This document shows, in pieces, positions 83-52,748 of a stretch of 64,000 nt of DNA; within the stretch, counting starts at the first letter, position 1; each line of letters begins with the position of its first letter. Below the pieces are notes generated by a model. The model ran no database searches. It was not told the DNA's origin and worked only from the letters and a program-made list of their open reading frames with translations. This stretch comes from Longimicrobiaceae bacterium (GTDB taxonomy: Bacteria > Gemmatimonadota > Gemmatimonadetes > Longimicrobiales > Longimicrobiaceae), in contig DASSTO010000009.1 of assembly GCA_035707865.1 (NCBI GenBank), positions 56,736 to 120,735 on the forward strand. Reading direction: 5' to 3'. The position numbers and the translations under genes were made by a program.

Positions 83-382
83 ATGGGACAGCCCGCCGCA
101 CGCGCCGGAGACATGCACGTCTGCCCGATGGTCACCCCGGGCGTGCCGCCGATCCCGCACGTGGGCGGGCCCGTGATGCCGCCCGGCTGCCCGACGGTGC
201 TCGTCGGAGGCATGCCCGCGGCCCGGGTCAGCGACATGTGCGTCTGCGTCGGCCCGCCCGACGTCATCGCGCTGGGCTCCTTCACCGTGCTCATCGGCGG
301 CATGCCCGCGGCGCGCATGGGCGACATGACCGCGCACGGCGGCAGCATCGTCCTCGGGCTGCCGACGGTGCTGATCGGCTGA
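83..382 (+). CDS. PAAR-domain protein
   Basis: 99 aa, ATG 83, TGA 380-382. Three PAAR motifs (QPAARAGDM, MPAARVSDM, MPAARMGDM), each with nearby conserved Cys/His and G.PTVL(V/I)GG strands. This is the small spike-tip PAAR architecture. Confidence 0.85.
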   Translation: MGQPAARAGDMHVCPMVTPGVPPIPHVGGPVMPPGCPTVLVGGMPAARVSDMCVCVGPPDVIALGSFTVLIGGMPAARMGDMTAHGGSIVLGLPTVLIG

Positions 383-7599: not shown

Positions 7600-7707
7600 A
7601 TGTAGAAAGCGAAGGGCTGACGCTGGTAGTTTTGCGAACGACTCTCTGCTGCAGGATGGATACCAACCCCGCGGATGGCCGTCCGCCCCCGCTCCGTCGG
7701 CCCTCCC

Positions 7708-7756
7708 GGACAGCACGAAGCGCCGGAGCGAGGAGCCCCGGCGCTTCGTGCTGTCC
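7708..7756 (-). terminator. 19-bp perfect hairpin just downstream of parB
   Basis: GGACAGCACGAAGCGCCGG (7708-7726) pairs with CCGGCGCTTCGTGCTGTCC (7738-7756) around an 11-nt loop. It starts 19 nt after the parB stop on the minus strand. No U-tract follows. Confidence 0.45.
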
Positions 7757-7769
7757 GGTATACAGACGG
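7753..7769 (+). repeat. 17-mer GTCCGGTATACAGACGG, copy 1
   Basis: Identical to the reverse complement of 9705-9721, and matches 12917-12931 over 15 nt. Contains the GTATAC palindrome. Confidence 0.8.
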
Positions 7770-7774
7770 ATTCC

Positions 7775-8812
7775 TCAGTGGCGTGATCGCAGCCGCGCGG
7801 CCGCGCGCTCCAGCGCGTCGGCCAGCTCCCGTGCCGGCTCCGGGTCGACCGCGTCGACCGCGTCGGCCGCGCGCTCGGCGAGCACGGCGAGCGCCGGGGC
7901 CATCCGCGAGAGGTAGTGCGCGGCCTGGCGCGGGGAGAGCTCGGAGAGCGACTGCCGGATGTTGATCTGGAACCCGCGCCCCCCCGCCCCGCCCTCCTGT
8001 CTGCGCGCCTTCCGCCGCTCGATCAGCGCCTGCGCGGCGGCACTGTCGCCCGCGCGCTTCAGCTCGTGGAGGAGACGCTCGCTGCCCGCTTCCGGTCCCG
8101 TGTCCGCGTCGCGCGCGACCCGCAGCAGCGCCGCGAGCGAGAGCCGACCCATGCGCCGGTGGTCGGGCTCCCCGCCCCTCACCGCGCCCGCCCCCGCCAG
8201 GACGGCCGGCGTGAGCGCGTCGGCGGCGCGCAGGTACTCGCCGATCGTCTGGAACTTCTTCCCCACGCTCTCCGCCACGTCGCGTACGGTGGCGGGCGCG
8301 CCGCGGCGGCGCAGCGAGTCGCGCCGCTGCCGCCACGCGAGCGCCCACTCCCACGCGGAGAGGTCGGTGCGATCGAGGTTCTCGCTCAGCACCATCGCCT
8401 CGGCGCGCTCGTCGTCGACCTCGTCGACCTTGATCGGCACCAGCCAGTGGCCCTCCGCGTCCCGCTCCAGCACGCCGTCGGCCTCGCCGCGCTCGATCAA
8501 CCGCGCGACCGCCCGCAGGCGCATCTCCCCCGGGATCAGCTGTACCCACCCCGGCTTCTCGGGGTGCGGCCGCCCGCGCGGCTCGTGGATCAGCCCGTTC
8601 GCGCGGATGCTCTCCGCCAGTTCCTCGATCTCCCGCTCGGGAAAGACCCGCCGCACCTGGAAGGGCGACGCCTCGACGCGGTCGAGGCGCACCTGCTGGA
8701 TCCGCCCTTCCCCGCTCCGCCCGTCCCGGCGCGCGTCGTAGCTGAGGACGTTCTCGTCCAGCCGGATCGCCGGCGCCTCCGCGGCTCGGGCACTGCCCAG
8801 GCGCCGCGTCAT
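7775..8812 (-). CDS. parB: ParB-like partition protein (ParB/Spo0J N-terminal domain)
   Basis: 345 aa. The start ATG overlaps the parA stop (ATGA, 8809-8812). ParB N-domain pattern V.LDRVEASPFQVRRVF.EREIEELAESIRANGLI.P...R.......LIPGEMRLRA. The arginine patch reads GEMRLRA, not the canonical GERRxRA. The 621-aa track ORF is an upstream extension running antisense-free through parA in another frame. Confidence 0.85.
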   Translation of the reverse strand: MTRRLGSARAAEAPAIRLDENVLSYDARRDGRSGEGRIQQVRLDRVEASPFQVRRVFPEREIEELAESIRANGLIHEPRGRPHPEKPGWVQLIPGEMRLRAVARLIERGEADGVLERDAEGHWLVPIKVDEVDDERAEAMVLSENLDRTDLSAWEWALAWRQRRDSLRRRGAPATVRDVAESVGKKFQTIGEYLRAADALTPAVLAGAGAVRGGEPDHRRMGRLSLAALLRVARDADTGPEAGSERLLHELKRAGDSAAAQALIERRKARRQEGGAGGRGFQINIRQSLSELSPRQAAHYLSRMAPALAVLAERAADAVDAVDPEPARELADALERAAARLRSRH

Positions 8813-9558
8813 GCCACACCTCGCGCGGCGCCCGGCGCCGCCGTCTGCCGCTCCAGGCGCAGGCGCCCGAGCACCTCGGCGGCCACCTCGCAGTACGCGT
8901 ACGCGCTGCGGCTGCGCGGCGCCGAGACCGTCACGGGTACCTCGAAGAGCGCGGCCTCCCCGGCCGGCATCTCGTATGGCACCACCGGTTCCATCCGCGC
9001 CTGCGGATAGTGCTCGTCCACCTGCTCCCGCATCCAGCGGAAGAGGTTCGATTGCAGGTGCGCCAGCGTGAGGAGGATGCGCACGGCGGGCGGCTCGGGC
9101 TGCAGCCGCGCGAGCGTGAGCACGTCGTGCGCGCGCTCCAGGCTCTCCTTGCCCGGCATCGCCGGGATGATCACCAGTGCCGCCTCGCGCAGCGCCGCCG
9201 TGGTGATCGGCCCCAGCGCCGGCGGCGTGTCCACCACCACCAGGTCCGCGTCGAGCGCGGCCGCGCGCGCCAGGTGGCGGCGCGCCGTCTCCACGTCCAC
9301 GGCTTCCAGCGAGCGGCCGCCGCGCAGTAGCTGCAGGTCCATCTCCGGCTCGCCGTCGTAGCGCACGCGCACCGGCTCCGCCGCGAGCGGATCCGCCACG
9401 CGCGCGAAGCCCGACCGGCTCGTGAGATCGGCCTGCGGGTCGCCGTCCACCATCACCACCCGCACGCCGGCCTTGGCGATGACGTGCGCGACCGCGGCGA
9501 CCGACGCCGTCTTGAGCGTGCCACCCTTGGCACCGATGAACGCGAGAATCCTGGCCAT
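8809..9558 (-). CDS. parA: ParA/MinD-family partition ATPase
   Basis: 249 aa. Deviant Walker A AFIGAKGGTLKTAS, then VVMVDGDPQADLT and DLVVVDTPP (Walker B). Confidence 0.9.
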   Translation of the reverse strand: MARILAFIGAKGGTLKTASVAAVAHVIAKAGVRVVMVDGDPQADLTSRSGFARVADPLAAEPVRVRYDGEPEMDLQLLRGGRSLEAVDVETARRHLARAAALDADLVVVDTPPALGPITTAALREAALVIIPAMPGKESLERAHDVLTLARLQPEPPAVRILLTLAHLQSNLFRWMREQVDEHYPQARMEPVVPYEMPAGEAALFEVPVTVSAPRSRSAYAYCEVAAEVLGRLRLERQTAAPGAARGVA

Positions 9559-9623
9559 GTGTGTCGTCTGGAGTTGCCGGAGAGTATACCGCGGGGCTCG
9601 CGCGGGCTACAAAGGTGGCCCCC

Positions 9624-9635
9624 CGCGTATACGCG
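9624..9635. promoter_or_regulatory. 12-bp perfect palindrome CGCGTATACGCG upstream of parA
   Basis: Lies 66 nt upstream of the parA ATG. A further GTATACC occurs at 9584-9590. The GTATAC core is shared with the 17-mer repeats. Confidence 0.5.
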
Positions 9636-9651
9636 CGCAAGCCCCGGAGGC

Positions 9652-9697
9652 TTATCGGCTATCGGCTATCGGTAAACCGATAGCCGATAGCTGATAG
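9652..9697. repeat. inverted array of six heptads (3x [T/C]TATCGG, TAAA spacer, CCGATAG CCGATAG CTGATAG)
   Basis: TTATCGG CTATCGG CTATCGG (9652-9672), TAAA, CCGATAG CCGATAG CTGATAG (9677-9697). The arms are inverted complements with 2 mismatches. Lies 94-139 nt upstream of parA. Confidence 0.85.
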
Positions 9698-9704
9698 CCG
9701 GTGC

Positions 9705-9721
9705 CCGTCTGTATACCGGAC
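9705..9721 (-). repeat. 17-mer GTCCGGTATACAGACGG, copy 2 (inverted)
   Basis: The plus strand reads CCGTCTGTATACCGGAC, the exact reverse complement of 7753-7769. Confidence 0.8.
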
Positions 9722-9739
9722 GGAGAACCCGGAGCCCGC

Positions 9740-10660
9740 TTACGGCCGGATCTCGATGCGGAGCGCGCCGTAGCGGAGCGTCTGCCCGCCGTCGGGCGCC
9801 GTCTCGATCGTCACGGGGCCCAGGTGGAGGCGGCTCGAGCCGTCGGGCGACGACTCCAGCGCCAGCGCCGTACCGGCTGGGAGGTGGAGGGGATACGAGC
9901 CGAAGGCGAGTGACGGCGCGGCGGATGGGGCAGGGGAGGGAGCCGCGGACGGCCCGCCCGGGGCCGCGCCCGCTCGGGGTTCGGGGCTCGCGAACGCCGC
10001 GGCGGTGATCCGGGTGCGCAGCCGGCGGCCGGGAGCGCGCTCGATCAGACCCGCCGAGCCGAGAGCGGAGAGGGCGGTGGAGACGGCCGTCCGGCCGTAG
10101 GAGACGCTCTCGACGAGCGCCGGCAGACTGCCCTCGACCCAGGTGCTGCCGGCGTCGCCGGGCCGGGCGAGGCGCGCGATCTCACGCAGGACCGCGAGCG
10201 CCGGTGCGAGCGCCGCTCCGGAGCCGCCGAGCACCGCGCGCACCCGCTCCCAGCGCAGCCGGGCGACGCAGGGGAGCTCTCCCAGGATGTCGGGGTCCAG
10301 CCGGAGCCCCTCCTCCTCCCGCCCCAGCGTTCCAGCCTCGGCGAGCGCATCCATCCCCAGCACCACCTCCGCGTGAAGGAGCCCGGTCCGCTCCATCAGC
10401 TCTCCCTCGGTGAGGGGCAGCGCCTCGCCCCATCGCGGCCCGTTGGGGCCGGGCGCGCGCTGCTGCACGAGCTCCCCGATGGCGCTCGCCACCGCCTCCG
10501 CCGCCCGGGTGCGCAACGGGTCGGAACCCCGCTGGCCGGCACCCACCGCCCCGCGCACCAGCACCGGGCTCGGCACGCGGTCGCTCCCCGCGTGGAGCGG
10601 AAGCACGAGCGTGGGCCGGGGCCCCGGCGCGATGGACGATTCGGAGAGGGGTCTCTGCAT
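9740..10660 (-). CDS. hypothetical protein with winged-helix-like segment
   Basis: 306 aa from ATG 10660 (the track ORF opens at GTG 10759, inside an iteron). HTH-like stretch LVESVSYGRTAVSTALSALGSAGLIERAP. Sits between rep and parA. Confidence 0.5.
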   Translation of the reverse strand: MQRPLSESSIAPGPRPTLVLPLHAGSDRVPSPVLVRGAVGAGQRGSDPLRTRAAEAVASAIGELVQQRAPGPNGPRWGEALPLTEGELMERTGLLHAEVVLGMDALAEAGTLGREEEGLRLDPDILGELPCVARLRWERVRAVLGGSGAALAPALAVLREIARLARPGDAGSTWVEGSLPALVESVSYGRTAVSTALSALGSAGLIERAPGRRLRTRITAAAFASPEPRAGAAPGGPSAAPSPAPSAAPSLAFGSYPLHLPAGTALALESSPDGSSRLHLGPVTIETAPDGGQTLRYGALRIEIRP

Positions 10661-10668
10661 CACGGGTT

Positions 10669-10686
10669 CGTCGGGTGCTCCTTCAC
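10669..10686 (-). repeat. iteron-like 18-mer, copy 1 (GTGAAGGAGCACCCGACG on minus strand)
   Basis: 17/18 match to copies 2 and 4. Ends 9 nt upstream of the orf ATG at 10660. Confidence 0.7.
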
Positions 10687-10741
10687 GCTCCGAGAGGCTG
10701 ATGGGAGGGGTGCATCGTCCGGCGCCGCGCCTGCTGTACGA

Positions 10742-10759
10742 CGTCGGGTACTCCTTCAC
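10742..10759 (-). repeat. iteron-like 18-mer, copy 2 (GTGAAGGAGTACCCGACG on minus strand)
   Basis: Identical to copy 4. Lies 73 nt from copy 1. Confidence 0.7.
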
Positions 10760-10904
10760 ACCGACCGCGTTCCATCCGCGAGCAAAGCGCGTTCCGGGGT
10801 CGGTAGCATAGACCGATCTCCTCGCGAATGCAAGGATTCCACCCCCTCCCGCTCACGCGTATCGTTCGCGCTCCGCTCGCGGTCGATCCGTGACCGGTTC
10901 GCCC

Positions 10905-10922
10905 GTGAAGAAGTACCCGACG
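10905..10922 (+). repeat. iteron-like 18-mer, copy 3 (GTGAAGAAGTACCCGACG)
   Basis: 17/18 match. Opposite orientation to copies 1 and 2. Confidence 0.7.
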
Positions 10923-11072
10923 AAGGCTCCACACGGACCTATCCGCCCGGACTTCCGGCGCTCCTGCGAGTCTCCTCGCGTCACCTCCCGCCCGTGGCGC
11001 CACGAAACGTTCGCGAACCGGTCGGCATGCGCGCCGGACGTCGGTATCCGGCAGGAGCGACCGGCCGTCGGG

Positions 11073-11090
11073 GTGAAGGAGTACCCGACG
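11073..11090 (+). repeat. iteron-like 18-mer, copy 4 (GTGAAGGAGTACCCGACG)
   Basis: Identical to the reverse complement of 10742-10759. The flanks GTCGG(G/T)GTGAAGG are also similar. Confidence 0.7.
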
Positions 11091-11230
11091 ACGACGTGCA
11101 CCCGTACGCAACGTCGGAGCGCACGAGCACGTGACGGCGGGAGGGGAGAAAGCGAGATCCCGGGCCGTGAACGGCTGCCCGGGATCCTCTCCGTAGAGTA
11201 GTGTTCGTCTTGTTCTATGGACAGACGGAC

Positions 11231-12901
11231 TCAACCGGACGGGGGCCTCGCGATGTGGAGGTCGAGGCGAACGGGGCGGCCGAGCGCGTCGGAAAGGGCG
11301 GTTTCGAGGCGCGCGCCGTACCGTTCGGAAATCCACTCGCGGGCGAAGGAGTTGGGTACGGCGACGACGACGTGGTCCCCGGCGATCTCCTGCATCCACG
11401 TCTCGCGGAACCAGGTGGTGAAGATCATCGGGGCGAGCTCCGGGCGGATCTGCGCGAGCGCGGTGCCCCAGGGATCGTCCGGAAGGGCGAAGTCCGGCGC
11501 CGACGGGGTGACGGGCTCGGGCGGGGTCGGCAGGAGCGTGGTGGGCGGGGCGGGGGACTCGGGCTGCTCGCGCAGGCTGGCGAGCTCGAAGCGGTCCGCG
11601 CGGCGGCGGGCCCACCGCTCGTACTCGGGCTCCTTGAATTCCCAGCCCTGCTCGAGCGCGGAGCCGATCCAGGAGTGCCACGCGACGATCGGCTTGCCCT
11701 TGGCGTCGAGACCCTGCTTCTCGGTCCGCACGTAGTGGACGCGCTGGAGCACCTCCTGCACGCGCATCCCGTGGCGTCGCAGCAGCGCCCGCGCCTCGCC
11801 GGCGGGGATCTGGTACTGCCCGAGCTGGCTGATGAGCACCCGGGTGCGCACCGGATCGAGCGCGCCGATGCCCCGCGCGGCCGCGGCGTCGCAGACCACC
11901 CGGCCAGGCATCAGGTCCACCCGGTAGACACCCCGGCGGATCGAAGCGACCTCGAACTGGTCGACCACGCCGTAGCCCTGCAGCTCCTTCAGCGCCGCGC
12001 GGAAGCGGTTCGCCACGTCGGCCGGCCGTTCGGACGTCTGCGCGCCGAGCACCTCCAGCCAGCTCGAGAGGATCTCCGAATGCCGCGCCGGGCGCCATCC
12101 CTGCGCGACCGCGAGCACCAGGCGCAGGTAGATGCCCTTCGCCACGGCGCTCCGCAGCGAGTTGTGCACTTCCAGGTCGATCCACGCGGCGATGCCGGTC
12201 TCCGTCTGCCCGAGCCAGATCGGGTTGATGCGCAGGAGGTGGATGACGTCGGTCGAGTCGTTCGCGCGCACCTCGCTCTCGACGTCGTACTCGAGGATCC
12301 AGTGCGTCACGTCGCGCTCACGCCGCCGCGGCCGGCCCGTGCCTGGCGCGGGCGCCGTCTCTCCGGAGCGCACCTGCTCCACCTCGCGCTCGAAGACCAT
12401 CTCCATGTTCGTCTGCACGGTGGTGTTCGCCCACCGGCCCAGCGCGCGCTTGACGGCGTTCACCTTCCCCCCCGTCACCCGCATCTCCGAGCCCGGGCGC
12501 GAGGCGAGCAGGATCGCGCGGTAGGAGACGTCCTGGAAGGTGCCGTCGGGGGCGACGACGCCCTGATCCACCAGGCTCCCGAGTCCGAGCAGGTAATCGA
12601 GGTCGTAGATGTTCGGCAGCCCCAGGAGCGGACTGCCGCTGACGCGCGCCTCGAAGCGGCTCCCGTCCGGATAGGCGATCACGTTGCGCTGGAAGGCGTG
12701 CGCCGGGTTCGCCACCAGCCCGTGCTCGTCGGTGGCGTAGGAGGTCTCCAGCGGCAGCCGGATGCAGCTCAGCAGGTAGAGCGGCCCCGGGACCGGCGTC
12801 TGGACCAGGTGGTCGGGCGCGAAGAGCGCGTCCGGGCTGTCCATCCGGACACGGGGAAAGTGCAGGGCGGTCGAGCGCCCCGGACGGGGATCGTTCGGCA
12901 T
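11231..12901 (-). CDS. plasmid replication initiator (RPA/RepA-like N-terminal part + DnaA-N-like C-terminal domain)
   Basis: 556 aa. N-terminal ...LLGLPNIYDLDYLLGLGSLV... resembles the Replication-initiator-protein-A family (GlaTifDkDiLiy pattern). The C-terminal IFTTWFRETWMQEIAGDHVVVAVPNSFAREWISERYGARLETALSDALGRPVRLDL closely follows the DnaA domain I pattern (F.TW..PL......L.L.VPN.F..DW....Y...I..AL). Confidence 0.75.
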   Translation of the reverse strand: MPNDPRPGRSTALHFPRVRMDSPDALFAPDHLVQTPVPGPLYLLSCIRLPLETSYATDEHGLVANPAHAFQRNVIAYPDGSRFEARVSGSPLLGLPNIYDLDYLLGLGSLVDQGVVAPDGTFQDVSYRAILLASRPGSEMRVTGGKVNAVKRALGRWANTTVQTNMEMVFEREVEQVRSGETAPAPGTGRPRRRERDVTHWILEYDVESEVRANDSTDVIHLLRINPIWLGQTETGIAAWIDLEVHNSLRSAVAKGIYLRLVLAVAQGWRPARHSEILSSWLEVLGAQTSERPADVANRFRAALKELQGYGVVDQFEVASIRRGVYRVDLMPGRVVCDAAAARGIGALDPVRTRVLISQLGQYQIPAGEARALLRRHGMRVQEVLQRVHYVRTEKQGLDAKGKPIVAWHSWIGSALEQGWEFKEPEYERWARRRADRFELASLREQPESPAPPTTLLPTPPEPVTPSAPDFALPDDPWGTALAQIRPELAPMIFTTWFRETWMQEIAGDHVVVAVPNSFAREWISERYGARLETALSDALGRPVRLDLHIARPPSG

Positions 12902-12916
12902 CGGGCTCGGGTGCGT

Positions 12917-12931
12917 GTCCGGTATACAGAC
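12917..12931 (+). repeat. 17-mer family, copy 3 (GTCCGGTATACAGAC, 15 nt conserved)
   Basis: Lies 16 nt upstream of the rep ATG (12901) on the opposite-sense side. A further partial match ACAGACGGA(C/T)TC occurs at 11221-11232, at the rep stop. Confidence 0.7.
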
Positions 12932-12953
12932 TGAGCGGATGAAGGACGAAAAG

Positions 12954-13013
12954 CTATCAGCTATCGGATATCAGACAGGTAGTTGCTGATAGCCGATAGC
13001 TGATAGCTGATAG
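12954..13013. repeat. inverted array of seven heptads (CTATCAG CTATCGG ATATCAG, 11-nt spacer, CTGATAG CCGATAG CTGATAG CTGATAG)
   Basis: 12954-12974 and 12986-13013. Same heptad family as 9652-9697. Lies 53-112 nt upstream of the rep start. Confidence 0.85.
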
Positions 13014-13039
13014 CCGGGGTGGAAGGGCAGGGCAGGGCC

Positions 13040-37611: not shown

Positions 37612-38379
37612 ATGAATCCTGCAGCAGACGTGGTGGTGCGCCAACGAGAGGAAGGCGAACTGGTCGGTTACGAGGTCGCCGCACTCACGCTGAATCCCAT
37701 GCCCGCCCGCCCGCCGCGATGGGTGGACTGGACGGCCCAGGGCGTTCTCGACCTCCGCCGCGCCATCAACGTGGTCGTCGCTGCGGTAGCGCTGATCCTC
37801 CTCTCTCCGCTCCTGCTCCTGATCGCCGTCCTGGTGAAGCTTAGCTCGCCGGGCCCCGTCATCTACCGCCAGACCCGCGTCGGGATCGACCGCCGCAGGG
37901 GAGAGAACCCGTACTGGCAGCTGCGGAGGCGCGTGGACTACGGTGGGCGTCTCTTCACGATCTACAAGTTCCGGACGATGCGCCCGCAGGCGGGCCCCAC
38001 GCACGAGGTGTGGGCGCGGCCGGACGACGATCGGGTGACGGCGGTGGGCCGCGTTTTGCGGAAGTACCGCCTCGACGAGCTCCCGCAGCTCGTGAACGTG
38101 CTGAAGGGTGACATGAACATCGTCGGGCCGCGCCCGGAGCAGCCCAGGATCTTCATGGACCTGCGCGAGCAGATCGGGGGCTACGCCGACCGGCAGCGCG
38201 TGCTGCCGGGAATCACGGGCTGGGCTCAGATCAACCAGAGCTACGACACCTCGATCGACGACGTGCGTCGGAAGGTGCGTTACGACCTGGAGTACATCCA
38301 TCGGCAGTCCACCCTGCAGGACCTCCAGATCCTGATGCGGACCGTGCCGGTAATGCTGTTCAAGAAAGGAGCTTGGTGA
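37612..38379 (+). CDS. undecaprenyl-phosphate sugar-phosphate transferase (bacterial sugar transferase family, priming enzyme)
   Basis: 255 aa. One TM helix, then SSPGPVIYRQTRVG, YKFRTM, DELPQLVNVLKGDMNIVGPRP. Preceded by an AT-rich 170-nt spacer. Confidence 0.9.
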   Translation: MNPAADVVVRQREEGELVGYEVAALTLNPMPARPPRWVDWTAQGVLDLRRAINVVVAAVALILLSPLLLLIAVLVKLSSPGPVIYRQTRVGIDRRRGENPYWQLRRRVDYGGRLFTIYKFRTMRPQAGPTHEVWARPDDDRVTAVGRVLRKYRLDELPQLVNVLKGDMNIVGPRPEQPRIFMDLREQIGGYADRQRVLPGITGWAQINQSYDTSIDDVRRKVRYDLEYIHRQSTLQDLQILMRTVPVMLFKKGAW

Positions 38380-39266
38380 GCACAGTCGCAGTCGCCACAC
38401 CGGTCGAGCGCGAGCGGGCCGCCGCGGCGGCGAGCCGCGGAAGGGCGGTGCTCCCGTGGGTAGCCACGGGAGCCGCCTTTCTGGTGCTTTTCGCAGGTCC
38501 CATGGCGGATCTGGCGAAGCAGTGGTGGACGGACCCGAACGCCGGGCACGGCCTCCTGCTCGCCCCGATCGCCCTCTACCTCGCGTGGCGCACCGGCGTG
38601 AGGCCGGATGCGAAGGGCCAGCCGGTGCTGGGGCTGTGTCTGCTCGTGGTCTCGGTGCTCCTGCGCTACGTCGGAGCGCTCGCGGCCGAGCTCTTCACCA
38701 TGCGCACGTCGCTGGTGGGCGCCATCGTCGCGCTCATCGTCTTCGCGTGGGGCGCGCGCCAGCTCGTGCGCTGGTGGCTCCCGCTGACGCTCGTCGTGCT
38801 CTCGGTCCCGCTGCCGACGGTGGTGCTGAACTCGGCGGCCTTCCCGCTGCAGCTCGAGGCGTCGAAGATGGGAGCCGCGCTGCTCGCGTGGCGACAGATC
38901 CCGGTGCTGCTCGATGGGAACGTGATCCGGCTGCCGGGGCACACGCTCTTCGTCACCGAGGCGTGCAGCGGCCTGCGGTCGCTGGCCGCGCTCGTCGCCC
39001 TGGGCGTGCTCATCGCCGGCCTCTGGCTGAAGAAGCCGCCGGTGCGCCTGCTGCTGATCGCCGCGGCCATCCCGGTGGCGATCCTGCTCAACGGGATCCG
39101 GGTCTTTCTCACGGGCTTCCTGGTCTTCTTCGTCGACCCGAAGCTGGGCGAGGGCTTCATGCACCTGACCGAGGGCTGGATCATCTTCGTCTTCGCCTTC
39201 GCCATCCTGGGCGGCCTCGCCTGGGTGCTGGTGCGCCTGGAGCGGCTGTGGGGGAGGGCGGCATGA
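38373..39266 (+). CDS. exosortase (EpsH/Xrt family)
   Basis: 297 aa (TTG 38373, or GTG 38376 overlapping the upstream TGA). Polytopic membrane protein with the catalytic triad context TEACSGLRSL, LLNGIRVFLTG, HLTEGW. Confidence 0.9.
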   Translation: MVSTVAVATPVERERAAAAASRGRAVLPWVATGAAFLVLFAGPMADLAKQWWTDPNAGHGLLLAPIALYLAWRTGVRPDAKGQPVLGLCLLVVSVLLRYVGALAAELFTMRTSLVGAIVALIVFAWGARQLVRWWLPLTLVVLSVPLPTVVLNSAAFPLQLEASKMGAALLAWRQIPVLLDGNVIRLPGHTLFVTEACSGLRSLAALVALGVLIAGLWLKKPPVRLLLIAAAIPVAILLNGIRVFLTGFLVFFVDPKLGEGFMHLTEGWIIFVFAFAILGGLAWVLVRLERLWGRAA

Positions 39267-39907
39267 GCACGCGACTGATGAGCTGGGCTCCCGCTTCGGT
39301 GCTCCTCGTGGGCGTGCTCGCGGTCTCCGGCGGCATCCGCGACCAGGTGAGCATGCCGCTGCGCGCTCCGCTCGCCACGAGCATCCCGACGCAGCTGGCG
39401 GGATACAGCGCGCGCGATCTCCCGATTTCGGAGGCGGAGCAGCGAGTCGCCGGCATGGACAGCTACGTGCTTCGCGAGTACACTGCACCGGGTGCCGCGG
39501 CGGCGGCCTTCTCCGTGTACGTGGGCTATTACCAGCGGCAGTACCAGGGCCACACGATCCACTCCCCCAAGAATTGCCTGCCGGGGGCGGGGTGGGAGCC
39601 GCTGGTGGCGGCGGTGCAGACGATCTCCGGTCCTCGCGGCCCGGTGCCGGTCAACCGGTACCTGATCGCCAACGGGCCGGCGCATGCTCTGGTGCTCTAC
39701 TGGTACCAGGGCCGGGGCCGGGTGACCGCGAACGAATACCGGGTCAAGTGGAATCTGCTCCAGGACCAGGCGATCCGCGGCCGGAGCGACGAATCGCTGG
39801 TGCGGGTGGTCGTCCCGGTGACCGGGAGTGAGCAGGAGGCGGACAGCCTGGCGGTGGAGGTGGCACAGCGCCTGCTTCCCGCCGTCGGCCGGGCACTTCC
39901 CAGCTGA
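39263..39907 (+). CDS. EpsI-family exosortase-associated protein
   Basis: 214 aa. ATGA overlap with the exosortase stop. N-terminal anchor, then ...YVGYYQRQYQGHTIHSPKNCLPGAGWE...LVLYWYQGRGRV..NEY..K, the EpsI pattern. Confidence 0.8.
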   Translation: MSTRLMSWAPASVLLVGVLAVSGGIRDQVSMPLRAPLATSIPTQLAGYSARDLPISEAEQRVAGMDSYVLREYTAPGAAAAAFSVYVGYYQRQYQGHTIHSPKNCLPGAGWEPLVAAVQTISGPRGPVPVNRYLIANGPAHALVLYWYQGRGRVTANEYRVKWNLLQDQAIRGRSDESLVRVVVPVTGSEQEADSLAVEVAQRLLPAVGRALPS

Positions 39908-40084
39908 GTGAGGGCCGAGCCATGAGCATGGACCATCGCGACAACCTCAGCCGCGCACCGCCGACTCTGCAGGCCCCATCCCGCAGCCGATGGGAAGGAG
40001 GTGGCGAACCGGAGTTCTGAAAAGCGCCGCCACGCCACTCATCCATGAGAGGCAGTTTCGGGTACCCTCACTCAGGGAAGACAC

Positions 40085-40801
40085 ATGTCAAGAGGCAGAC
40101 TCACATGGTCGTACGCCAAAGGCTTCGCGGCCCTGGCGCTTACGGCCGCTGCGTCGCTCGTCACCGCAGGTGGTGCGAGCGCGCAGATATTCATCATCGG
40201 CAACGCCACGGGCTGCTTCGGCCTGGGCTGTGTGCCTGCCGAGGCGGCGGCGACCGTTGTCAACGGCGTCCCGCTCAGCTACACCAGCCTGGTGCCGACC
40301 GACTTCACCGGCATCACCGCCGGCGGGCAGCTCGCGATCAACACGACGGGCACTTCGACGACCGGTAACTTCGGGAAGATCAGCGTCGGTACCGCACTGT
40401 CGAACAAGACGATCAGCTCGCCGTTCTCGTTGCTGGTCTCCTTCGGTAACCCGCTGACGGCGGACCAGAGCTTCACGGCGCTGATCAGCGGCGTCGTCCA
40501 GTCTCTCGGTACCGGCGGGATCACGCTGGACTTCAACCCGGCGGTCTCCGGGCCGGCGAACATCAACTACACGACGGACTGGCAGTCGTTCTTCGATCCG
40601 CTCAGCGGTAGGAGCGGCATGCTCCGCACCACGGCCAACGGTACGTTCATCCCCTCCGGTGGAGATGGCGAGATCGCGGGCCTGATCGAGGTGGCGAGCG
40701 TGACTCCCGAGCCCGCTTCCATGATGTTGCTCGGAACGGGTCTCTTCGGCCTCATCGGAGTGACGCGTCGCCGTCGCAAGCAGCAGGTCTCTCTCACGTA
40801 G
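40085..40801 (+). CDS. PEP-CTERM sorting-domain protein
   Basis: 238 aa. Signal peptide ...TAGGASAQ. C-terminus SVTPEPASMMLLGTGLFGLIGVTRRRRKQ. Confidence 0.85.
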   Translation: MSRGRLTWSYAKGFAALALTAAASLVTAGGASAQIFIIGNATGCFGLGCVPAEAAATVVNGVPLSYTSLVPTDFTGITAGGQLAINTTGTSTTGNFGKISVGTALSNKTISSPFSLLVSFGNPLTADQSFTALISGVVQSLGTGGITLDFNPAVSGPANINYTTDWQSFFDPLSGRSGMLRTTANGTFIPSGGDGEIAGLIEVASVTPEPASMMLLGTGLFGLIGVTRRRRKQQVSLT

Positions 40802-40911
40802 TCGAGGCGCTTCAGCTGGCTCCGCGGTCGGCCGTGCCGATCGCGGAGCTGGTGGGCGAGGCGCAGGGGGCCGGGCACGCTCGTGCCGCTCGCAACTCAT
40901 TCCGGACATCG

Positions 40912-41472
40912 ATGAACTACAGTTCTCTGGACCGCGGTGGCCTGCGACATCTCGTCGGGCCGCTGTACGCCACGGCGGTGATGCTCGTCGTGATCCCGCT
41001 CTCGGACCTCGGCGGGGCGCTCGGCTGGAAGATGCTCCCGCACGCGATCAACTGGCGAACCGGCGCGGTCGGGCTGTTCAGCGGCACCGTCCTCACGCCG
41101 GCGCTGGGGCTCGTGATCGCGGTCATCACCGCATCCCTCTTCGGCCACCGGTGGGCGCAGCGGGTTCTCACCGTCGTCGTCGGCCTCGCCGCCCTGGTAC
41201 TCTTCGCCATCCTGGCGGGCTTCATCCTCGACGCCATCCAGCTCCGGGCGATGGTGGCGGACGCGACGATGCGCCACTCCTTCACCGCCGCGGTCGTCAA
41301 GGCGACGATCAACCTCGTCGTCGCCGCCGTGACCCTCGCGATCGTCTGCGTCGGCGCCTTCCGGGCGGGGCGGCAGCGCGACCGGGCCGAAGCCGCCACC
41401 AAGCGCCCGGAGCCAGCGCCGACCCCCCTGCTGAGAACGCCACAGCGCCCGCTGCCCGAGAGCGGCGCGTGA
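40912..41472 (+). CDS. hypothetical 4-TM membrane protein
   Basis: 186 aa from ATG 40912. Four clear hydrophobic helices and a basic/Pro-rich tail. Confidence 0.55.
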   Translation: MNYSSLDRGGLRHLVGPLYATAVMLVVIPLSDLGGALGWKMLPHAINWRTGAVGLFSGTVLTPALGLVIAVITASLFGHRWAQRVLTVVVGLAALVLFAILAGFILDAIQLRAMVADATMRHSFTAAVVKATINLVVAAVTLAIVCVGAFRAGRQRDRAEAATKRPEPAPTPLLRTPQRPLPESGA

Positions 41473-41646
41473 ATGCCGCCGCGGCGAGCTTCAGAAGGTC
41501 TCTCGCATCTCTCCGGGCCCCCTACCCGCCAGCATTCCCGCGTTCGCGCGAACGGGGGGGCCGTGGCAGCGTCGGAGGTGCGTCCTCCTGGCTCCAGGTC
41601 CCTCCACACCGGCCTCCGTGATCGGCGCTGGAGATACACGCAAGGG

Positions 41647-41675
41647 TTGACGTCGTCCGTGCGCCACAGTATCTT
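41647..41675 (+). promoter_or_regulatory. sigma-70-like promoter TTGACG-N17-TATCTT
   Basis: -35 at 41647-41652 and -10 at 41670-41675. Lies ~300 nt upstream of riboswitch 1. Confidence 0.45.
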
Positions 41676-41981
41676 GACGCCCGCTGTCCGGCCCGAGTCA
41701 AGGCCGCAGGTCATACAGCGAGCGGGCGCGTGAGTCCCCCGGTTCTCCAGAGAGCGAGCGGGGGGCTCGTCCCGGAAAGCACTTCATACGACCGGAAAGA
41801 AGTTCCTGTTCGACGGCGGCACCATCGCTCGTCGAATCATACCGCCGGAGCGCGCATCCCCTGGCCGCGCAGAGAGTTAGGCCCGGGTAGACGCGATGGA
41901 TCGACAGGGGCATCCGGGTTGCCTCCATCGGCCGCACCGGTGACTTCCAGTCGTTCGGGTGATCGGTTCAGATTCCGTCGA

Positions 41982-42080
41982 GTTGCTGCTCAGAGCAAAC
42001 CCACCGAAAGGCGGGGACGCAGAGTCAAGGGGCTACAGCGGAGGGTGCTTCTCCGCCACGCTCGCCTGGCCGCCAGCGAC
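41982..42080 (+). ncRNA. c-di-GMP-I (GEMM-I)-like riboswitch aptamer, copy 1
   Basis: GUUGCUG-CUCAGAGCAAACC-CACC GAAA GGCGG-GGACGCAGAGUCAAGGGGCUAC-AGCGGAG(GGUGCUU)CUCCGC-CACGCUCGCCUGGCCGC-CAGCGAC. Matches the Vc2-type core, with a GAAA hairpin and a 7-bp closing helix. See findings. Confidence 0.8.
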
Positions 42081-42082
42081 GT

Positions 42083-42112
42083 ACTCCTTTGCCCCGGTGG
42101 TGGCAAAGGAGT
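42083..42112 (+). promoter_or_regulatory. anti-SD / decoy-SD hairpin (expression platform candidate)
   Basis: ACUCCUUUGCC (42083-42093) pairs perfectly with GGCAAAGGAGU (42102-42112). CUCCUUUG is also complementary to the true RBS CAAAGGAG (42214-42221). Confidence 0.5.
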
Positions 42113-42227
42113 CAGCGCTGGCGGCCTTTTGCGTTCCAGCGCTCCACAATCCACGCAGATCGATCGTCGCGGGAGGCGGGCCAATCAGGGTCCCCTCGAA
42201 TCATCCGTCCTTCCAAAGGAGAGCCTC

Positions 42228-43193
42228 ATGAAGCCTGGGCAGCAGTGGAAAAGGTGGGCCGCAATCCTGACGCTCGGAGTCGTTGCCGGGGCATGCAGCG
42301 ACCAGTCCCCGACCGCAATTCAGACCCCGCTCTCGACGACCGAGGTGTCGGCTTCGACCTCGTCGCTCTCGGTCGCGAGGGTGATCGTCTATCCGTTCTC
42401 CTACACGCTCAAGCTGGGCCAGTACAAGCAGCTGATCGCGGTGCCGAAGGATGCGTCGGGGAATACCCTGAGCCTGGTCGGGCGGAGCGTCTCGTGGAAG
42501 AGCTCGAATCCGGCCGTCGCAACCGTGTACAAGGGCAACGTGAGAGCCAGGGGCGCCGGCACCGTCACGATCACGGCGACGGTGGACGGAGTCAGGGGGA
42601 CGACGAAGATCACCGTGAAGGCGCCGATCAGCGTGGCCTCGGTCACGCTCACGCCCTCCAGCGGGAGCGTCCAGGTGGGCCAGTATCTCCAGCTCCATGC
42701 GACGCCGAAGGACGCCAGCGGAAATCCCGTCAGCGGCCAGACGGTCACCTGGTCCAGCTCGAACCCCGCGATCGCGAAGGTCTACTCGAACGGTCTGGTC
42801 CAGGCCGTGAGCGCGGGCTCGGTGACGATCTCGGCCACCGCGGGCGGAAAGACCGGTCACGCCGCCATCACGGTGACCACGGCGCCGGTCGTGTCGGCGC
42901 CGTCGTCCTCGACCCCTTCCACCTCTGACGTCGCGTCGGTTGTGGTCTACCCGACGATCTACAGCCTCACGGTCGGCCAGTACAAGCAGATGATCGCGGT
43001 GCCGCGGGACGCCTCGGGGCACACCATGAGCCTGGTCGGCCGCACCGTCGTGTGGAGCAGCTCGAACCCGGCCGTGGCGACCGTCAGCGCGTCGGGCCTG
43101 GTGGTCGCCAAGAGCGTGGGCGTGGTCACGATCAAGGCGACGGTGGACGGAACCGTGGGGACGGCGAAGATCACCTCGGCGCTGCCGTACTGA
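42228..43193 (+). CDS. lipoprotein with three Big_2 Ig-like domains
   Basis: 321 aa. AAGGAG lies 6 nt upstream of ATG 42228. Lipobox VVAGAC. Three repeats of (Y/L).(L/V)..GQY.Q(L/M).A.P.DASGN.....V.W.SSNPA(V/I)A.V...G.V.A...G.VTI.AT..G. Confidence 0.85.
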   Translation: MKPGQQWKRWAAILTLGVVAGACSDQSPTAIQTPLSTTEVSASTSSLSVARVIVYPFSYTLKLGQYKQLIAVPKDASGNTLSLVGRSVSWKSSNPAVATVYKGNVRARGAGTVTITATVDGVRGTTKITVKAPISVASVTLTPSSGSVQVGQYLQLHATPKDASGNPVSGQTVTWSSSNPAIAKVYSNGLVQAVSAGSVTISATAGGKTGHAAITVTTAPVVSAPSSSTPSTSDVASVVVYPTIYSLTVGQYKQMIAVPRDASGHTMSLVGRTVVWSSSNPAVATVSASGLVVAKSVGVVTIKATVDGTVGTAKITSALPY

Positions 43194-43217
43194 ACCTTCT
43201 CACGAAGAACTCCTCCG

Positions 43218-43258
43218 GAAGCACAGGGGAGGGCGCCGGGCGCCCTCCCCTGTGCTTC
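43218..43258 (+). terminator. near-perfect 20-nt inverted repeat (terminator candidate)
   Basis: GAAGCACAGGGGAGGGCGCC (43218-43237) and GGCGCCCTCCCCTGTGCTTC (43239-43258), followed by TT. Starts 25 nt after the Big_2 gene stop. Confidence 0.55.
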
Positions 43259-43380
43259 TTCAGTCCGTGGCACCGGGTTATCTTTCCGGGGCGGCGCTCC
43301 CGTGGTGTGGCGCGGGCGCAACAGCTGCCGTACCGGAAGGGCACTTCGCGGACGTTCGGGCACCGGAGCATACGGGCGAG

Positions 43381-44529
43381 ATGATTTCCCCTGTCGAGCG
43401 ACCCATCCGGGTGGCGTTCTGCATCGACAACATGAATCTGGGCGGGACCGAGCTGAACGCCGTGCGGACGGCGGAGCGGCTGGACCGCTCGCGCTTCGAG
43501 CTGCGCGTCTTCTGCCTGCAGGGCGAGGGTCCGCTGCTGGAGCGCTACGCCGCGGCCGGCGTCCCGGTACATTCCCTGCCGATCCCGAACCTGTACGGCC
43601 CCGGCGCGTGGCGCCAGGGGCGTCGGCTGGCGCGGTTGCTGCGCGAGTACCGGATCGACGTGCTGCACGCGCACGACGTCTACAGCAACGTCTTCGCGGT
43701 GCCGTGGGCGCGACGGGCAGGTGTGGGAACGATCGCGAGCCGGCGCTGGTGGGAGGGTCTGCCGGGCCTGCACTGGAAGCTGGCGAGTGCCGCGGCACAC
43801 CGCGTCGCGCACCGCACCCTGGCCAACGCGCCGGGCGTCGCGCGCCTCCTGGAGCGGGAGGGAATCGCCCGGGACCGGATCGCCGTCGTGCCGAACTTCC
43901 TGGATGAGAGCGCCTTCGAGCTGCTCCCGGAGGCGGAGCGACCGGAGCGACTCGGGGCACTCGGCGCCGACCCGGGGGCGCGCCAGGTGGGAGTGGTGGC
44001 GAACCTGCATCCGGTCAAGGACCACGCGTCCCTCGTGAAGGCGGTCTCCCTGCTGGCGGGGCGCTATCCCGACCTGCAGCTCGTCCTGGTGGGCGACGGG
44101 AGCATGCGCGAGCCGCTCGAGACGCTCGCGGCCGAGCGGGGAATCAGGGAGCGCGTGGTCTTCGCGGGCCGGAGAGCGAACGCGGCCAGCCTGCACCAGC
44201 TCTTCGAGGTCTCGGTTCTCCCCTCCTACAGCGAGGGGTTTCCGAACACGATACTAGAGGCGATGGCGGCGGCGCGCCCGGTGGTGGCCACGACCGTGGG
44301 CGCCATCCCCGACGCGGTGGTGGACGGAGAGACGGGCCTGCTGGTGCCGCCGCGCGATCCCGACCGCCTCGCGGCCGCGCTGGACACGCTCCTGAGCGAT
44401 CCCGCCCGGGCCCGCCGGATGGGAGAGGCGGGTCGGGAGCGCGCCCGGGAGCACTTCTCCGCGCGGGCGGCGCTCTCCAGGCTCGAGGGGCTGTACCGGG
44501 AGCTGGCGGGAGCGCGGGTGGACGGGTGA
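43381..44529 (+). CDS. GT4-family glycosyltransferase
   Basis: 382 aa from ATG 43381. C-terminal EGFPNTILEAMAAARPVVATTVGAIPDAVVDGETGLLV (E-x7-E motif). Confidence 0.85.
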   Translation: MISPVERPIRVAFCIDNMNLGGTELNAVRTAERLDRSRFELRVFCLQGEGPLLERYAAAGVPVHSLPIPNLYGPGAWRQGRRLARLLREYRIDVLHAHDVYSNVFAVPWARRAGVGTIASRRWWEGLPGLHWKLASAAAHRVAHRTLANAPGVARLLEREGIARDRIAVVPNFLDESAFELLPEAERPERLGALGADPGARQVGVVANLHPVKDHASLVKAVSLLAGRYPDLQLVLVGDGSMREPLETLAAERGIRERVVFAGRRANAASLHQLFEVSVLPSYSEGFPNTILEAMAAARPVVATTVGAIPDAVVDGETGLLVPPRDPDRLAAALDTLLSDPARARRMGEAGRERAREHFSARAALSRLEGLYRELAGARVDG

Positions 44530-44578
44530 GCGGGTGAACGCGGGGGCTGCGGTGGCGCCTGCGCCGGGGCCCTGCGCC

Positions 44579-44634
44579 GGCCCTCACCCGGCAGCCTGAG
44601 AGCCGCCACCCTCTCCCGCAAGCGGGCGAGGGGA
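44579..44634 (+). repeat. REP-like intergenic element, copy A
   Basis: GGCCCTCACCCGGC, 18-nt variable segment, CTCTCCCGCAAGCGGGCGAGGGGA. The second block is an imperfect hairpin. Same two blocks as 51167-51225. Confidence 0.7.
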
Positions 44635-44729
44635 AGGGTTTTCGGCGCGCGGGTCGGATGATCGCCTGTATTCAGCTGAGAGCTTCCGGCGTGTTGCGCC
44701 GACATTTCCGAGAACCGGTGTAGTTCACG

Positions 44730-49191: not shown

Positions 49192-49195
49192 GCCG

Positions 49196-51091: not shown

Positions 51092-51166
51092 TGTTGTGCC
51101 ACGAGCGCCAGGTGACAAGTGTGCGGAAGCCTGAGCAACGGCGCGGTGCTCGGACGCCGGTGCGCG

Positions 51167-52745: not shown

Positions 52746-52748
52746 CCG

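Follow-up and report, generated by a model that had tools for sequence, protein, structure and literature searches.

The locus analysed here carries genes for plasmid-style replication and partition in a Longimicrobiaceae (Gemmatimonadota) soil bacterium, which raised the question whether they maintain an autonomous secondary replicon or reside in the main chromosome. The source genome is a metagenome-assembled genome (MAG) of 3.78 Mb in 216 contigs, and the window, a stretch of 64,000 nucleotides, is part of contig C9 (132 kb). On the minus strand, rep, a 570-bp non-coding stretch, orf2, parA, parB, and a closing hairpin follow one another. That this gene set is real and complete, as proposed in a preliminary description of the sequence, was confirmed. 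The order rep-orf2-parA-parB recurs in four other Longimicrobiaceae contigs (L015 to L018) with unrelated flanks.

The Rep initiator and the candidate origin

The initiator of 556 amino acids (aa) proposed earlier was borne out by the ORF call (rep, 11231 to 12901, minus strand). The protein consists of an RPA/RctB/Pi-like double winged-helix core (about aa 20 to 445), a disordered Pro-rich linker (aa 445 to 469), and a C-terminal DnaA domain I. Foldseek searches with the AF2 model (pLDDT 84.7, pTM 0.73) detected domains 2-3 of RctB (5tbf_B, E 8.7e-6, TM 0.61 normalised to the target) and the Pi-iteron complex (2nra_C, E 0.017); the predicted structure thus shows an iteron-initiator fold, a double winged helix of the RctB/Pi type. 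By sequence, Rep is related only remotely to Pfam RPA (PF10134), to which 8 of 25 family members gave weak matches. The Rep of the window itself stayed below every Pfam Rep threshold, with no match to RPA or Rep_3 even at E ≤ 10, so that of the two models named in the preliminary description, RPA and DnaA_N, only the latter was matched. One search yielded 39 Rep homologues, all metagenomic. A bona fide RPA protein (67 bits) with a C-terminal DnaA_N (31.6 bits) is also present in metagenomic data (P0182).

The DnaA domain I part of rep (aa 477 to 550; 11252 to 11473, minus strand) was identified by Pfam (DnaA_N in aa 477-537, 48.7 bits, cut-off 24.6, E 6e-13), by a profile search against the PDB (B. 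subtilis DnaA domain I, 4tps_B, E 2e-10), and by Foldseek (4tps_B, TM 0.82, rmsd 1.5). Residues W478, W497, N517, and F519 are each either invariant or conserved to at least 90%, and their spacing is that of B. subtilis W8, W27, N47, and F49. The C-terminus of Rep is a genuine DnaA domain I, which keeps the Trp of dimerisation as well as the Trp/Asn/Phe set of the E. coli and B. subtilis domains. The latter residues are the hot spot for partner binding, with DnaB/DiaA in E. coli and DnaD/SirA in B. subtilis (e.g. PMC4285326, PMC6393240). In contrast to DnaA, the initiator that carries the domain at its C-terminal end is unrelated and has neither an AAA+ nor a DnaA-box-binding domain. Since the domain is only 26% identical to domain I of the host's own DnaA, it was not captured recently.

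RPA, Pi (R6K), RepE (F), and RepA (pPS10) share the double winged-helix core with Rep and have iterons adjoining the gene, but Rep is about twice the size of Pi or RepE, with an extra helical domain in addition to DnaA domain I. The best structural match, RctB of Vibrio cholerae chromosome 2 (ori2), is likewise a large multi-domain iteron initiator of a large unit-copy secondary replicon with a dedicated parAB adjacent, unit copy being a depth estimate in our case. There is no sequence similarity between the two proteins. RctB has domains 1 and 4 of its own, 39-mers, crtS, and Dam control, and ori2 contains a DnaA box. Rep, in contrast, ends in DnaA domain I, and a search of the candidate oriV that tolerated one mismatch detected no DnaA box.

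The core of this candidate oriV (10669 to 11090) is formed by four 18-bp iterons with no more than one mismatch each, as reported in the preliminary description for the non-coding stretch. Two are on the plus strand (11073-11090, 10905-10922) and two on the minus strand (10742-10759, 10669-10686); read along the gene strand, CGTCGGGTACTyCTTCAC is found at 11090-11073 and 10922-10905, and its inverse at 10759-10742 and 10686-10669. All other matches in the 3.78-Mb genome carry three mismatches, and the iterons are therefore locus-specific and not obtained by chance. Between the two pairs is a conserved promoter-like element, TTGCAT-17-TATGCT (10833-10805). The four homologous modules show the same layout, two to four direct and two inverted iterons of different sequence, and a TTGC-N-TATCGT promoter is conserved in them. 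Across modules, the iteron sequence differs along with Rep, and both Rep and orf2 differ between the two iteron types.

Just past the rep stop, the relatively AT-rich patch placed earlier at about 11185-11225 was found again as a region of 47-50% GC (11180 to 11230; 40-bp windows), compared with a window mean of 70.7% and a first percentile of 53%. It is a candidate DNA-unwinding element (11190 to 11230), and an AT-rich stretch is present at the equivalent position in the four relatives. A hairpin followed by UCGCUUUCUCC (11156 to 11187, minus strand; fold z = -2.4) is the likely rep terminator, and the relatives have an equivalent GC hairpin at the same place. Strict scans called no intrinsic terminator, the hairpin at 11156-11187 included, and no consensus sigma-70 promoter.

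The next gene, orf2 (9740 to 10660, minus strand), specifies a protein of 306 aa in which tandem winged helices are followed by a C-terminal beta domain. This agrees with the earlier wHTH-like call and is based on the AF2 model (pLDDT 77), Foldseek, which gave generic wHTH matches only (E > 0.01), and weak GntR/Crp HTH matches in Pfam. The protein is kept in L015 to L018 and in two metagenome proteins (33-89% identity), and is presumed to be a regulator or an auxiliary origin-binding protein.

Partition genes, candidate parS sites and hairpins

parA (8809 to 9558, minus strand) encodes an ATPase of 249 aa that has a deviant Walker A motif (KGGTLKT) and no HTH at its N-terminus. The protein matches AAA_31/CbiA and ParA_partition and is 65-75% identical to its counterparts in L015 to L018. 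ParB (7775 to 8812, minus strand; 345 aa) comprises ParB_N (33.2 bits, cut-off 26.3), an HTH, and a C-terminal domain, and is also matched by TIGR00180 (59.7 bits, cut-off 58.45). Its gene is translationally coupled to parA through the ATGA at 8812-8809, as had been noticed before. The reading of the arginine patch as GEMRLRA was also upheld, since it aligned with GERRWRA of Caulobacter ParB (6t1f); across the ParB family of the module the patch is GE(M/L)RxRA, and a 15-aa insertion follows it in the same alignment. Because the first Arg of the patch is missing, CTP-dependent clamping is uncertain. The hairpin closing the parAB operon (7706 to 7758, minus strand) exists, with arms of 24 nt (7706-7729, 7735-7758) instead of the 19 bp given originally. 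They are 96% complementary (-61.9 kcal/mol, z = -9.6).

A near-palindromic 15-mer, GTCTGTATACCGGAC, is present in three exact copies in the module: 16 nt upstream of the rep ATG (12917 to 12931, minus strand), in inverted orientation past the orf2 stop and ahead of the parA promoter region (9707 to 9721, plus strand), and 8 nt past the parB stop, where it extends into the 5' arm of the hairpin that closes the operon (7753 to 7767, minus strand). Four out of five genome matches with up to two mismatches are on C9. The positions are conserved in the relatives, that of the first copy in L015, L016, and L018. In L017 a different motif, TGTCCGCACACCGGACA, occupies these positions, and the HTH of its ParB reads KPHTTV, compared with KKFQTI/QKFQTL in the others. 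The 15-mer thus changes together with the ParB HTH, in a single switch (L017), and is the likely parS/operator. As in KorB/OB of IncP (RK2) and chromosomal ParABS, a ParB_N/HTH protein is combined with a short ParA, and short palindromic sites are promoter-proximal to both partition and replication genes. Site sequence, arginine patch, and insertion distinguish the module from both systems.

Inverted CTATCRG heptads are arrayed at 9653-9698, at the position of the orf2 terminator, and in a second hairpin at 12952-13014 (-46.8 kcal/mol, z = -8.3), which directly follows the stop of the upstream REC gene and precedes UUUU. As module-specific operators both were rejected; the heptads belong to a genome-wide intergenic family of REP-like terminator hairpins with 96 loci, found on C9 and, elsewhere in the MAG, on about 90 contigs, among them the one that carries dnaA. 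The second hairpin is the terminator of the neighbouring gene, outside the module proper. The 180-bp repeat-dense operator region described before was therefore right in spirit for the 15-mer and wrong for the heptads, which would be ordinary terminator/REP elements of the host genome.

Status of contig C9 as a probable replicon

dnaA and a canonical parB (111 bits) are located on another contig, C107. In Logan unitigs of run X1, depth was 8.7-12 for C9 and 6-14.6 for C107, about one copy of C9 per chromosome. Judged by heptad family, GC content, and depth, all shared with the chromosome, C9 belongs to the same cell line and is present at about one copy. That C9 was mis-binned, from another organism or as a phage-plasmid, is therefore very improbable, despite an estimated contamination of the MAG of 4.4%; the hairpins are species-specific, and no phage genes were seen.

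The ends of C9 do not overlap, so that circularisation, proposed earlier as a check, was not obtained, and cumulative GC skew has no turning point at the module. Skew is uninformative: in samples from secondary replicons of relatives it was weak and noisy, with local sign changes bracketing rep in both Gemmatirosa plasmids and not in genome G378. Missing closure and skew switch, as well as chromosome-like depth, would also fit a plasmid or megaplasmid now integrated into the main chromosome, or what is left of one after domestication or during decay, in either case no longer driving autonomous replication. The host REP-like hairpins that colonised the module suggest long residence, and in genome G008 rep is split into two halves on two contigs, so the module can decay. 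Such an origin of the locus is nevertheless unlikely. None of the four genes is disrupted, and iterons and 15-mers are exact (ORF calls, repeat search); no integrase, relaxase, or transposase was found in a Pfam scan of about 40 C9 ORFs, as first noted, and no tRNA or att-like repeats, the latter suggested as a sign of decay, in the window. The flanks differ at every homologous locus, and an intact second origin would be unexpected in the chromosome, where an active one would be deleterious.

Rep is sporadic, with true homologues in about 5 of 151 genomes of the order and 7 of 401 of the phylum, and most genomes of the same family are without it. In closed genomes it lies only on secondary replicons, which also argues against integration: contig C2 of G378 (868 kb), and plasmids 1 and 2 of a cultured species, Gemmatirosa kalamazoonensis KBS708 (CP007129, 1.106 Mb; CP007130, 1.041 Mb), with dnaA on C1 in both organisms. 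These plasmids, proven circular replicons of the same phylum, are the sole PLSDB records with a Rep homologue, and the records carry no annotation. Their distant homologues are 28-29% identical over aa 79-550, C-terminal domain included (RPA 21.7/25.9 bits; DnaA_N below Pfam detection), and parA-parB adjoins rep on each. They differ from the module in gene order, parAB being convergent with or upstream of rep, in a ParB reading GHRR[LM]AA, and in the absence of an orf2 homologue in tblastn searches. We know of no studies on their replication regions.

The unit copy, GC content and REP family in common with the chromosome, relatives on replicons of 0.87-1.1 Mb, and a fold closest to the initiator of the Vibrio chromid could indicate a chromid, an essential secondary chromosome. 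This is quite doubtful, since the 64-kb window yielded no tRNA gene, the approximately 40 C9 ORFs scanned contained no core housekeeping gene, most genomes of the family do without Rep, and for the flanking RCC1 protein no orthologue was present in 50 genomes of the family. Of the alternatives plasmid or chromid first put forward, a plasmid-type module is thus strongly supported and the chromid is not; as no core genes were seen among these ORFs, "megaplasmid" is the better term. The cargo is accessory (T6SS, c-di-GMP signalling, exosortase/EPS; Pfam, about 40 ORFs). Autonomy of the C9 replicon is likely, though unproven, and the initial interpretation as a whole is partly supported: the module type stands, an autonomous circle does not yet.

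The locus thus probably serves to maintain a low-copy secondary replicon of the megaplasmid type. The kind of module is ordinary; the Rep-DnaA-domain-I family is uncharacterised. Rep monomers would contact the iterons with their winged helices and open the AT-rich stretch next to them. DnaA domain I, with its partner-binding Trp/Phe kept, could recruit the host helicase machinery directly, in which case DnaA boxes would not be needed, or pair with domain I of host DnaA. At the two inverted iterons downstream of the orf2 promoter, Rep (or Orf2) may control orf2, pair origins, or do both, and thereby limit copy number. ParB may bind the 15-mers as parS, two copies flanking parAB and one at the rep 5' end; at these sites it would load for ParA-driven segregation and, like KorB, repress parAB and rep.

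Gene content and relatives of the module

The four co-oriented minus-strand ORFs named in the preliminary description were found as described: rep (12901-11231, 556 aa), orf2 (10660-9740, 306 aa, with an alternative 339-aa frame beginning within the iteron field), parA (9558-8809, 249 aa), and parB (8812-7775, 345 aa), the last two coupled by an ATGA overlap seen in the sequence. The source MAG comprises 216 contigs (genome 3.78 Mb, 94.7% complete, 4.4% contaminated), and the contig carrying the module, C9 (DASSTO010000009.1), is 132,307 bp long, the window taking up its positions 56,736 to 120,735. The dnaA gene was located on another contig, C107 (238 bits), with a canonical parB (111 bits) 17 kb away; in the same search the window ParB reached only 31.5 bits. 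Therefore, the chromosomal origin region is not at the module, and the rep and par genes of the window represent a second, divergent set. Besides dnaA on C107, the MAG contains a second gene with a Bac_DnaA ATPase domain (C113:18664-19134, 129 bits, 479-aa frame).

The order rep-orf2-parA-parB was also detected in four other Longimicrobiaceae loci (L015 to L018), namely on contigs of 208,638 bp from ENA (ERZ25039504 contig_164817) and 161,790 bp from JGI (Ga0370537_0036) and in two GTDB genomes, with identities of 48% for Rep, 33-35% for Orf2, 65-75% for ParA, and 62-65% for ParB. The neighbours of the module are unrelated. Full-length Rep homologues are sporadic, being present in about five of 151 genomes of the order and seven of 401 of the phylum, and the remaining matches of the full-length search in the order are all to domain I of dnaA. 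In PLSDB, the only Rep homologues are those on plasmid 1 (1,106,233 bp) and plasmid 2 (1,040,503 bp) of Gemmatirosa kalamazoonensis KBS708. They are 28-29% identical to the window Rep over aa 79-550 and score 21.7 and 25.9 bits against RPA (cut-off 27), and on both plasmids parA-parB lies alongside the rep homologue. In G378, a three-contig genome, the Rep homologue resides on the 868-kb contig 2. The dnaA gene is on contig 1 in both G. kalamazoonensis and G378, and contig 1 of G378 likewise harbors additional DnaA-like genes. With a complete rep/par set and homologous replication genes on proven secondary replicons, the Gemmatirosa plasmids, the claim of a plasmid-type replication/partition module was upheld.

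For orf2, only three relatives were found in the databases. Nothing significant was obtained against Pfam/NCBIfam, weak GntR/Crp HTH matches being the only ones, and its model gave solely generic winged-helix matches in Foldseek. In another genome compared, G008, rep is split into halves at C222:77093-77767 (aa 25-251, 325-aa frame) and C11:51846-52784 (aa 246-554, 347-aa frame; loci L006 and L024). The C11 half is followed next by an orf2 homologue, and the arrangement suggests that this copy has been rearranged or is decaying.

Rep and its C-terminal DnaA domain I

Searches of Rep against the models for replication initiator protein A and DnaA_N, both proposed as checks, had opposite outcomes. 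DnaA_N (PF11638) was matched at aa 477-537 with 48.7 bits (Pfam cut-off 24.6), while the curated Rep models PF10134 (RPA), PF01051, PF11826, and PF07042 gave no match to the window Rep even at E <= 10. When 25 family members were scanned, DnaA_N was present in 24, and RPA was seen below threshold in eight (best E 6e-4). In a profile search of PDB sequences, DnaA domain I was the sole match (4tps_B, E 2e-10).

An AF2 model calculated from 25 homologues (pLDDT 84.7, pTM 0.73) and Foldseek comparisons revealed two tandem winged-helix DNA-binding domains, the feature by which the iteron-initiator superfamily is recognized. Beyond these, Rep has a further helical domain at aa 334-444 and, at its C-terminus, the DnaA domain I, to which a disordered Pro-rich linker (aa 445-469) leads. 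The model matched RctB domains 2-3 (PDB 5tbf_B; E 8.7e-6, target-normalised TM 0.61, 317 columns) and the Pi-iteron complex (2nra_C, E 0.017), and its final 75 residues matched DnaA domain I (4tps_B; TM 0.82, rmsd 1.5). Rep is thus predicted to be a remote double winged-helix initiator of the RPA/RctB/Pi type that belongs to none of these families at curated thresholds.

Conservation among homologues is complete or at least 90% for four residues of the Rep domain I (W478, W497, N517, F519), and their spacing (19 and 22 residues) equals that of W8, W27, N47, and F49 in B. subtilis DnaA. These residues comprise the dimerisation Trp and a partner-binding hot spot, for DnaD/SirA in B. subtilis, and domain I of E. 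coli DnaA contacts DnaB/DiaA through N44/F46 (PMC4285326, PMC6393240, PMC10201431). Since domain I of Rep is only 26% identical to that of the host's own DnaA, the fusion is old.

A HMMER search over 1.84 billion representatives, corresponding to clusters at 50% identity, yielded 144 proteins at E <= 1e-10, of which 68 reached E <= 1e-30. The matches are mostly 500-630 aa long and align through to the C-terminus, indicating a small, coherent family of about 70 clusters. Scanning the genome contigs with a back-translated Rep pattern gave no match. The lone name among the homologues is 'DnaA N-terminal domain-containing protein [Longimicrobium sp.]', from which a Longimicrobiaceae-like member of the Gemmatimonadota follows as host. 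Outside the Rep family, three metagenome proteins carry comparable fusions: in P0182, a bona fide RPA (67 bits), the C-terminus is a DnaA_N, and in the HTH_36 winged-helix proteins P0152 and P0160 DnaA_N is present twice. Fusion of an initiator to DnaA_N is therefore a recurring architecture, and the domain combinations suggest that it originated repeatedly. In a genome of the same family, G116, a DnaA with three tandem DnaA_N domains before AAA+ and DnaA_C is encoded on C180 (P0094, 815 aa). Full-text literature searches found no description of Rep-DnaA_N fusions or of Gemmatimonadota plasmid replication, and the fusion is unmentioned in preprints on RPA and Rep phylogeny. As far as the searchable literature shows, the architecture is undescribed.

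Candidate origin, candidate partition sites, and hairpins

The four 18-bp iteron-like repeats reported between rep and orf2 are present and locus-specific. Copies of GTGAAGGAGTACCCGACG with at most one mismatch were found at 11073 and 10905 (plus strand) and at 10742 and 10669 (minus strand), and all further matches in the 3.78-Mb genome had three mismatches. The AT-rich patch was also borne out, with 47-50% GC at 11180-11230 versus a mean of 70.7% and a first percentile of 53%. Direct repeats of 17-22 bp with an adjoining AT-rich stretch, as expected for an iteron initiator, are therefore in place, and this layout is kept in the four relatives. All five modules have a common order. The rep stop is followed by about 35-45 bp of AT-rich sequence, a GC hairpin whose tail is rich in T, two to four direct iterons, a promoter-like TTGC-N-TATCGT, two iterons in opposite orientation, and finally the GTG/ATG start codon of orf2, which is embedded in conserved AACCCGTGA. 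The window counterpart of the promoter-like element is TTGCAT-17-TATGCT at 10833-10805. The iterons differ, CGTCGGGTACTyCTTCAC in the window versus TTCCGGTGsCGCyCCTATGT in L015 to L018, in parallel with the divergence of Rep (48%). DnaA boxes (TTWTNCACA, at most one mismatch) were absent from all intergenic regions of the module, and strict scans of the module for sigma-70 promoters and terminators called nothing.

ParA matches AAA_31/CbiA and ParA_partition (Pfam/NCBIfam), and ParB is recognized by ParB_N (33.2 bits, cut-off 26.3) and TIGR00180 (59.7 bits, cut-off 58.45). As in type I ParABS, the ParA with its deviant Walker-A motif is here followed in one operon by a ParB_N/HTH protein. Alignment to solved ParB and Noc proteins confirmed that GEMRLRA replaces the canonical CTP-binding arginine patch GERRxRA (GERRWRA or GERRLRA in these structures), with the catalytic Glu and both later Arg retained. 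The relatives show GEMR[LI]RA (L015, L016, L018) or GELRLRA (L017). As M occupies this position throughout the family (L in L017), the replacement is a family trait and not a sign of decay.

Exactly three copies of the 15-mer GTCTGTATACCGGAC, all exact, are contained in the module, at 12917-12931, 9707-9721 (inverted), and 7753-7767. Allowing two mismatches, only five matches were obtained in the genome, four on C9 and one on C157. The latter (C157:712-726) is an exact copy within a coding region. Chance alone would yield about 0.01 matches of this kind. C157 (24.7 kb) may be part of the same replicon as C9. In L015, L016, and L018, a motif of the same arms plus TATAC is located upstream of rep, upstream of parA, and directly after parB. 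The motif at the corresponding positions of L017 differs (TGTCCG-CACAC-CGGACA), and so does the ParB HTH, KPHTTV versus KKFQTI or QKFQTL in the other four; the orf2 recognition helix shows no correspondence with the motif switch. This single covariation favours ParB as candidate binder of the 15-mers. If ParB binds, they would act as parS, with KorB-like regulation at the 5' regions of rep and parA.

The hairpin closing the unit exists, with arms of 24 nt and not 19 as reported before (fold -61.9 kcal/mol, z = -9.6); Rfam returned only a sub-threshold miRNA chance match. The repeat-dense region taken for an operator did not hold up as such. Its CTATCRG heptads belong to a hairpin family of 96 loci genome-wide, none in ORFs and 60 no more than 150 nt past a stop codon, and a role as operator or centromere was rejected. 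The 43 loci with inverted, hairpin-type arrays all have identical arm order. Of the two arrays at the module, one directly follows the orf2 stop (9653-9698, z = -5.8) and the other the stop of the upstream REC gene, ending in UUUU (12952-13014, z = -8.3). They are REP-like terminator hairpins rather than a module-specific operator, and they should not be annotated as plasmid centromeres. At the equivalent position in L015 (13050-13120) a different heptad palindrome, CACAGAG, is found, and each Longimicrobiaceae genome may possess its own family of heptad-hairpin terminators or REPs.

Replicon type and implications

The module is probably functional and serves to maintain a secondary replicon of low copy number and megaplasmid type. 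Read depth was compared with the chromosome, as had been proposed. In the best-matching soil run (X1), Logan unitig depth was 8.7-10.8 at the module, 12 at the C9 start, and 6.1-14.6 (mean about 10.8) on C107, indicating about one copy per chromosome. A multicopy plasmid is thereby ruled out, and an integrated or domesticated element, though unlikely, would be compatible with such chromosome-like depth. As stated before, no integrase, relaxase, or transposase is nearby, none being found by Pfam among about 40 ORFs of C9. A flank synteny test for insertion found no orthologue of the left-flank 1141-aa RCC1 protein in 50 family genomes. Circularisation, a further suggested check, was not seen: C9 has no terminal overlap or repeat, and the unitigs of the best Logan run end 125 nt inside the C9 start, so that neither neighbour nor closure is readable. 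C9 has no GC skew turning point at the module. Skew sampled in 20 stretches of 20 kb each from both Gemmatirosa plasmids and contig 2 of G378 was weak and noisy, changed sign locally (-/+) near rep only in the Gemmatirosa plasmids, and was rejected as evidence either way. Mis-binning of C9 is highly improbable, since C9 shares the species-specific CTATCRG hairpin family with roughly 90 other contigs of the MAG, C107 among them.

The cargo of C9 is accessory. It includes a full T6SS, a c-di-GMP island, and clusters of the PAAR/RCC1 and exosortase/EPS kind, together with genes for a SusC-type receptor, a phosphoesterase, and an ECF sigma factor. No core or essential gene was detected among the roughly 40 Pfam-scanned ORFs and no tRNA in the window. 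Of the earlier 'plasmid or chromid', the megaplasmid type is thus the likely part; a strict chromid, a sub-case of the secondary replicon and not an additional alternative, is distinctly improbable for want of core genes among the ORFs scanned. The replicon may extend to further contigs. The T6SS core is complete and precedes the window by 8-30 kb (C9:26,400-48,400). It encodes TssM/IcmF, two TssK, TssC/VipB, TssA, TssF, VgrG, and a ClpV-like ORF, so that the PAAR gene at window 83-382 does have a T6SS core on its own contig. The exosortase (EpsH) EPS cluster (window 37612-54623) comprises a sugar transferase, a Wzy-like polymerase, glycosyltransferases, and three paralogous asparagine-synthase-like genes (44730, 49196, 52749), which are typical of PEP-CTERM/exosortase loci.

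As an iteron replicon with ParABS, the system is of an ordinary kind. What is uncharacterised is this particular initiator family, marked by its DnaA domain I fusion, its conserved orf2, and its connection to the megaplasmids of Gemmatirosa. Gemmatimonadota, an abundant group in soils, have hardly been studied genetically. To our knowledge, no replicon or vector has been characterised for the phylum, and we are aware of no publication that analyses the replication regions of the two 1-Mb plasmids of Gemmatirosa. The module defines a compact candidate mini-replicon, about 3.5-5.3 kb in size, that comprises rep, the iterons, and orf2 and may also include parABS, and the Rep family links MAG contigs to proven megaplasmids. 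C9, including its T6SS, c-di-GMP, and exosortase/EPS cargo, should be flagged as probably extrachromosomal.

The roles of orf2 and of the Rep domain I we only infer. The fusion offers a testable hypothesis on helicase recruitment by plasmid initiators and on the coupling of secondary replicons to the chromosome. Tentatively, and with more doubt than confidence, the megaplasmids of Gemmatimonadota might depend on a distinct class of initiator, in which an iteron-binding protein of RctB/RPA type carries DnaA domain I as a permanent fusion. Through this domain the replicon would dock the helicase-loading machinery of the host, with no need for DnaA or DnaA boxes. Another option is heterodimerisation with domain I of the chromosomal DnaA, by which the unit-copy megaplasmid would fire in dependence on the chromosome initiation cycle. 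If true, either would be a route of replicon coordination unlike crtS/RctB of Vibrio.
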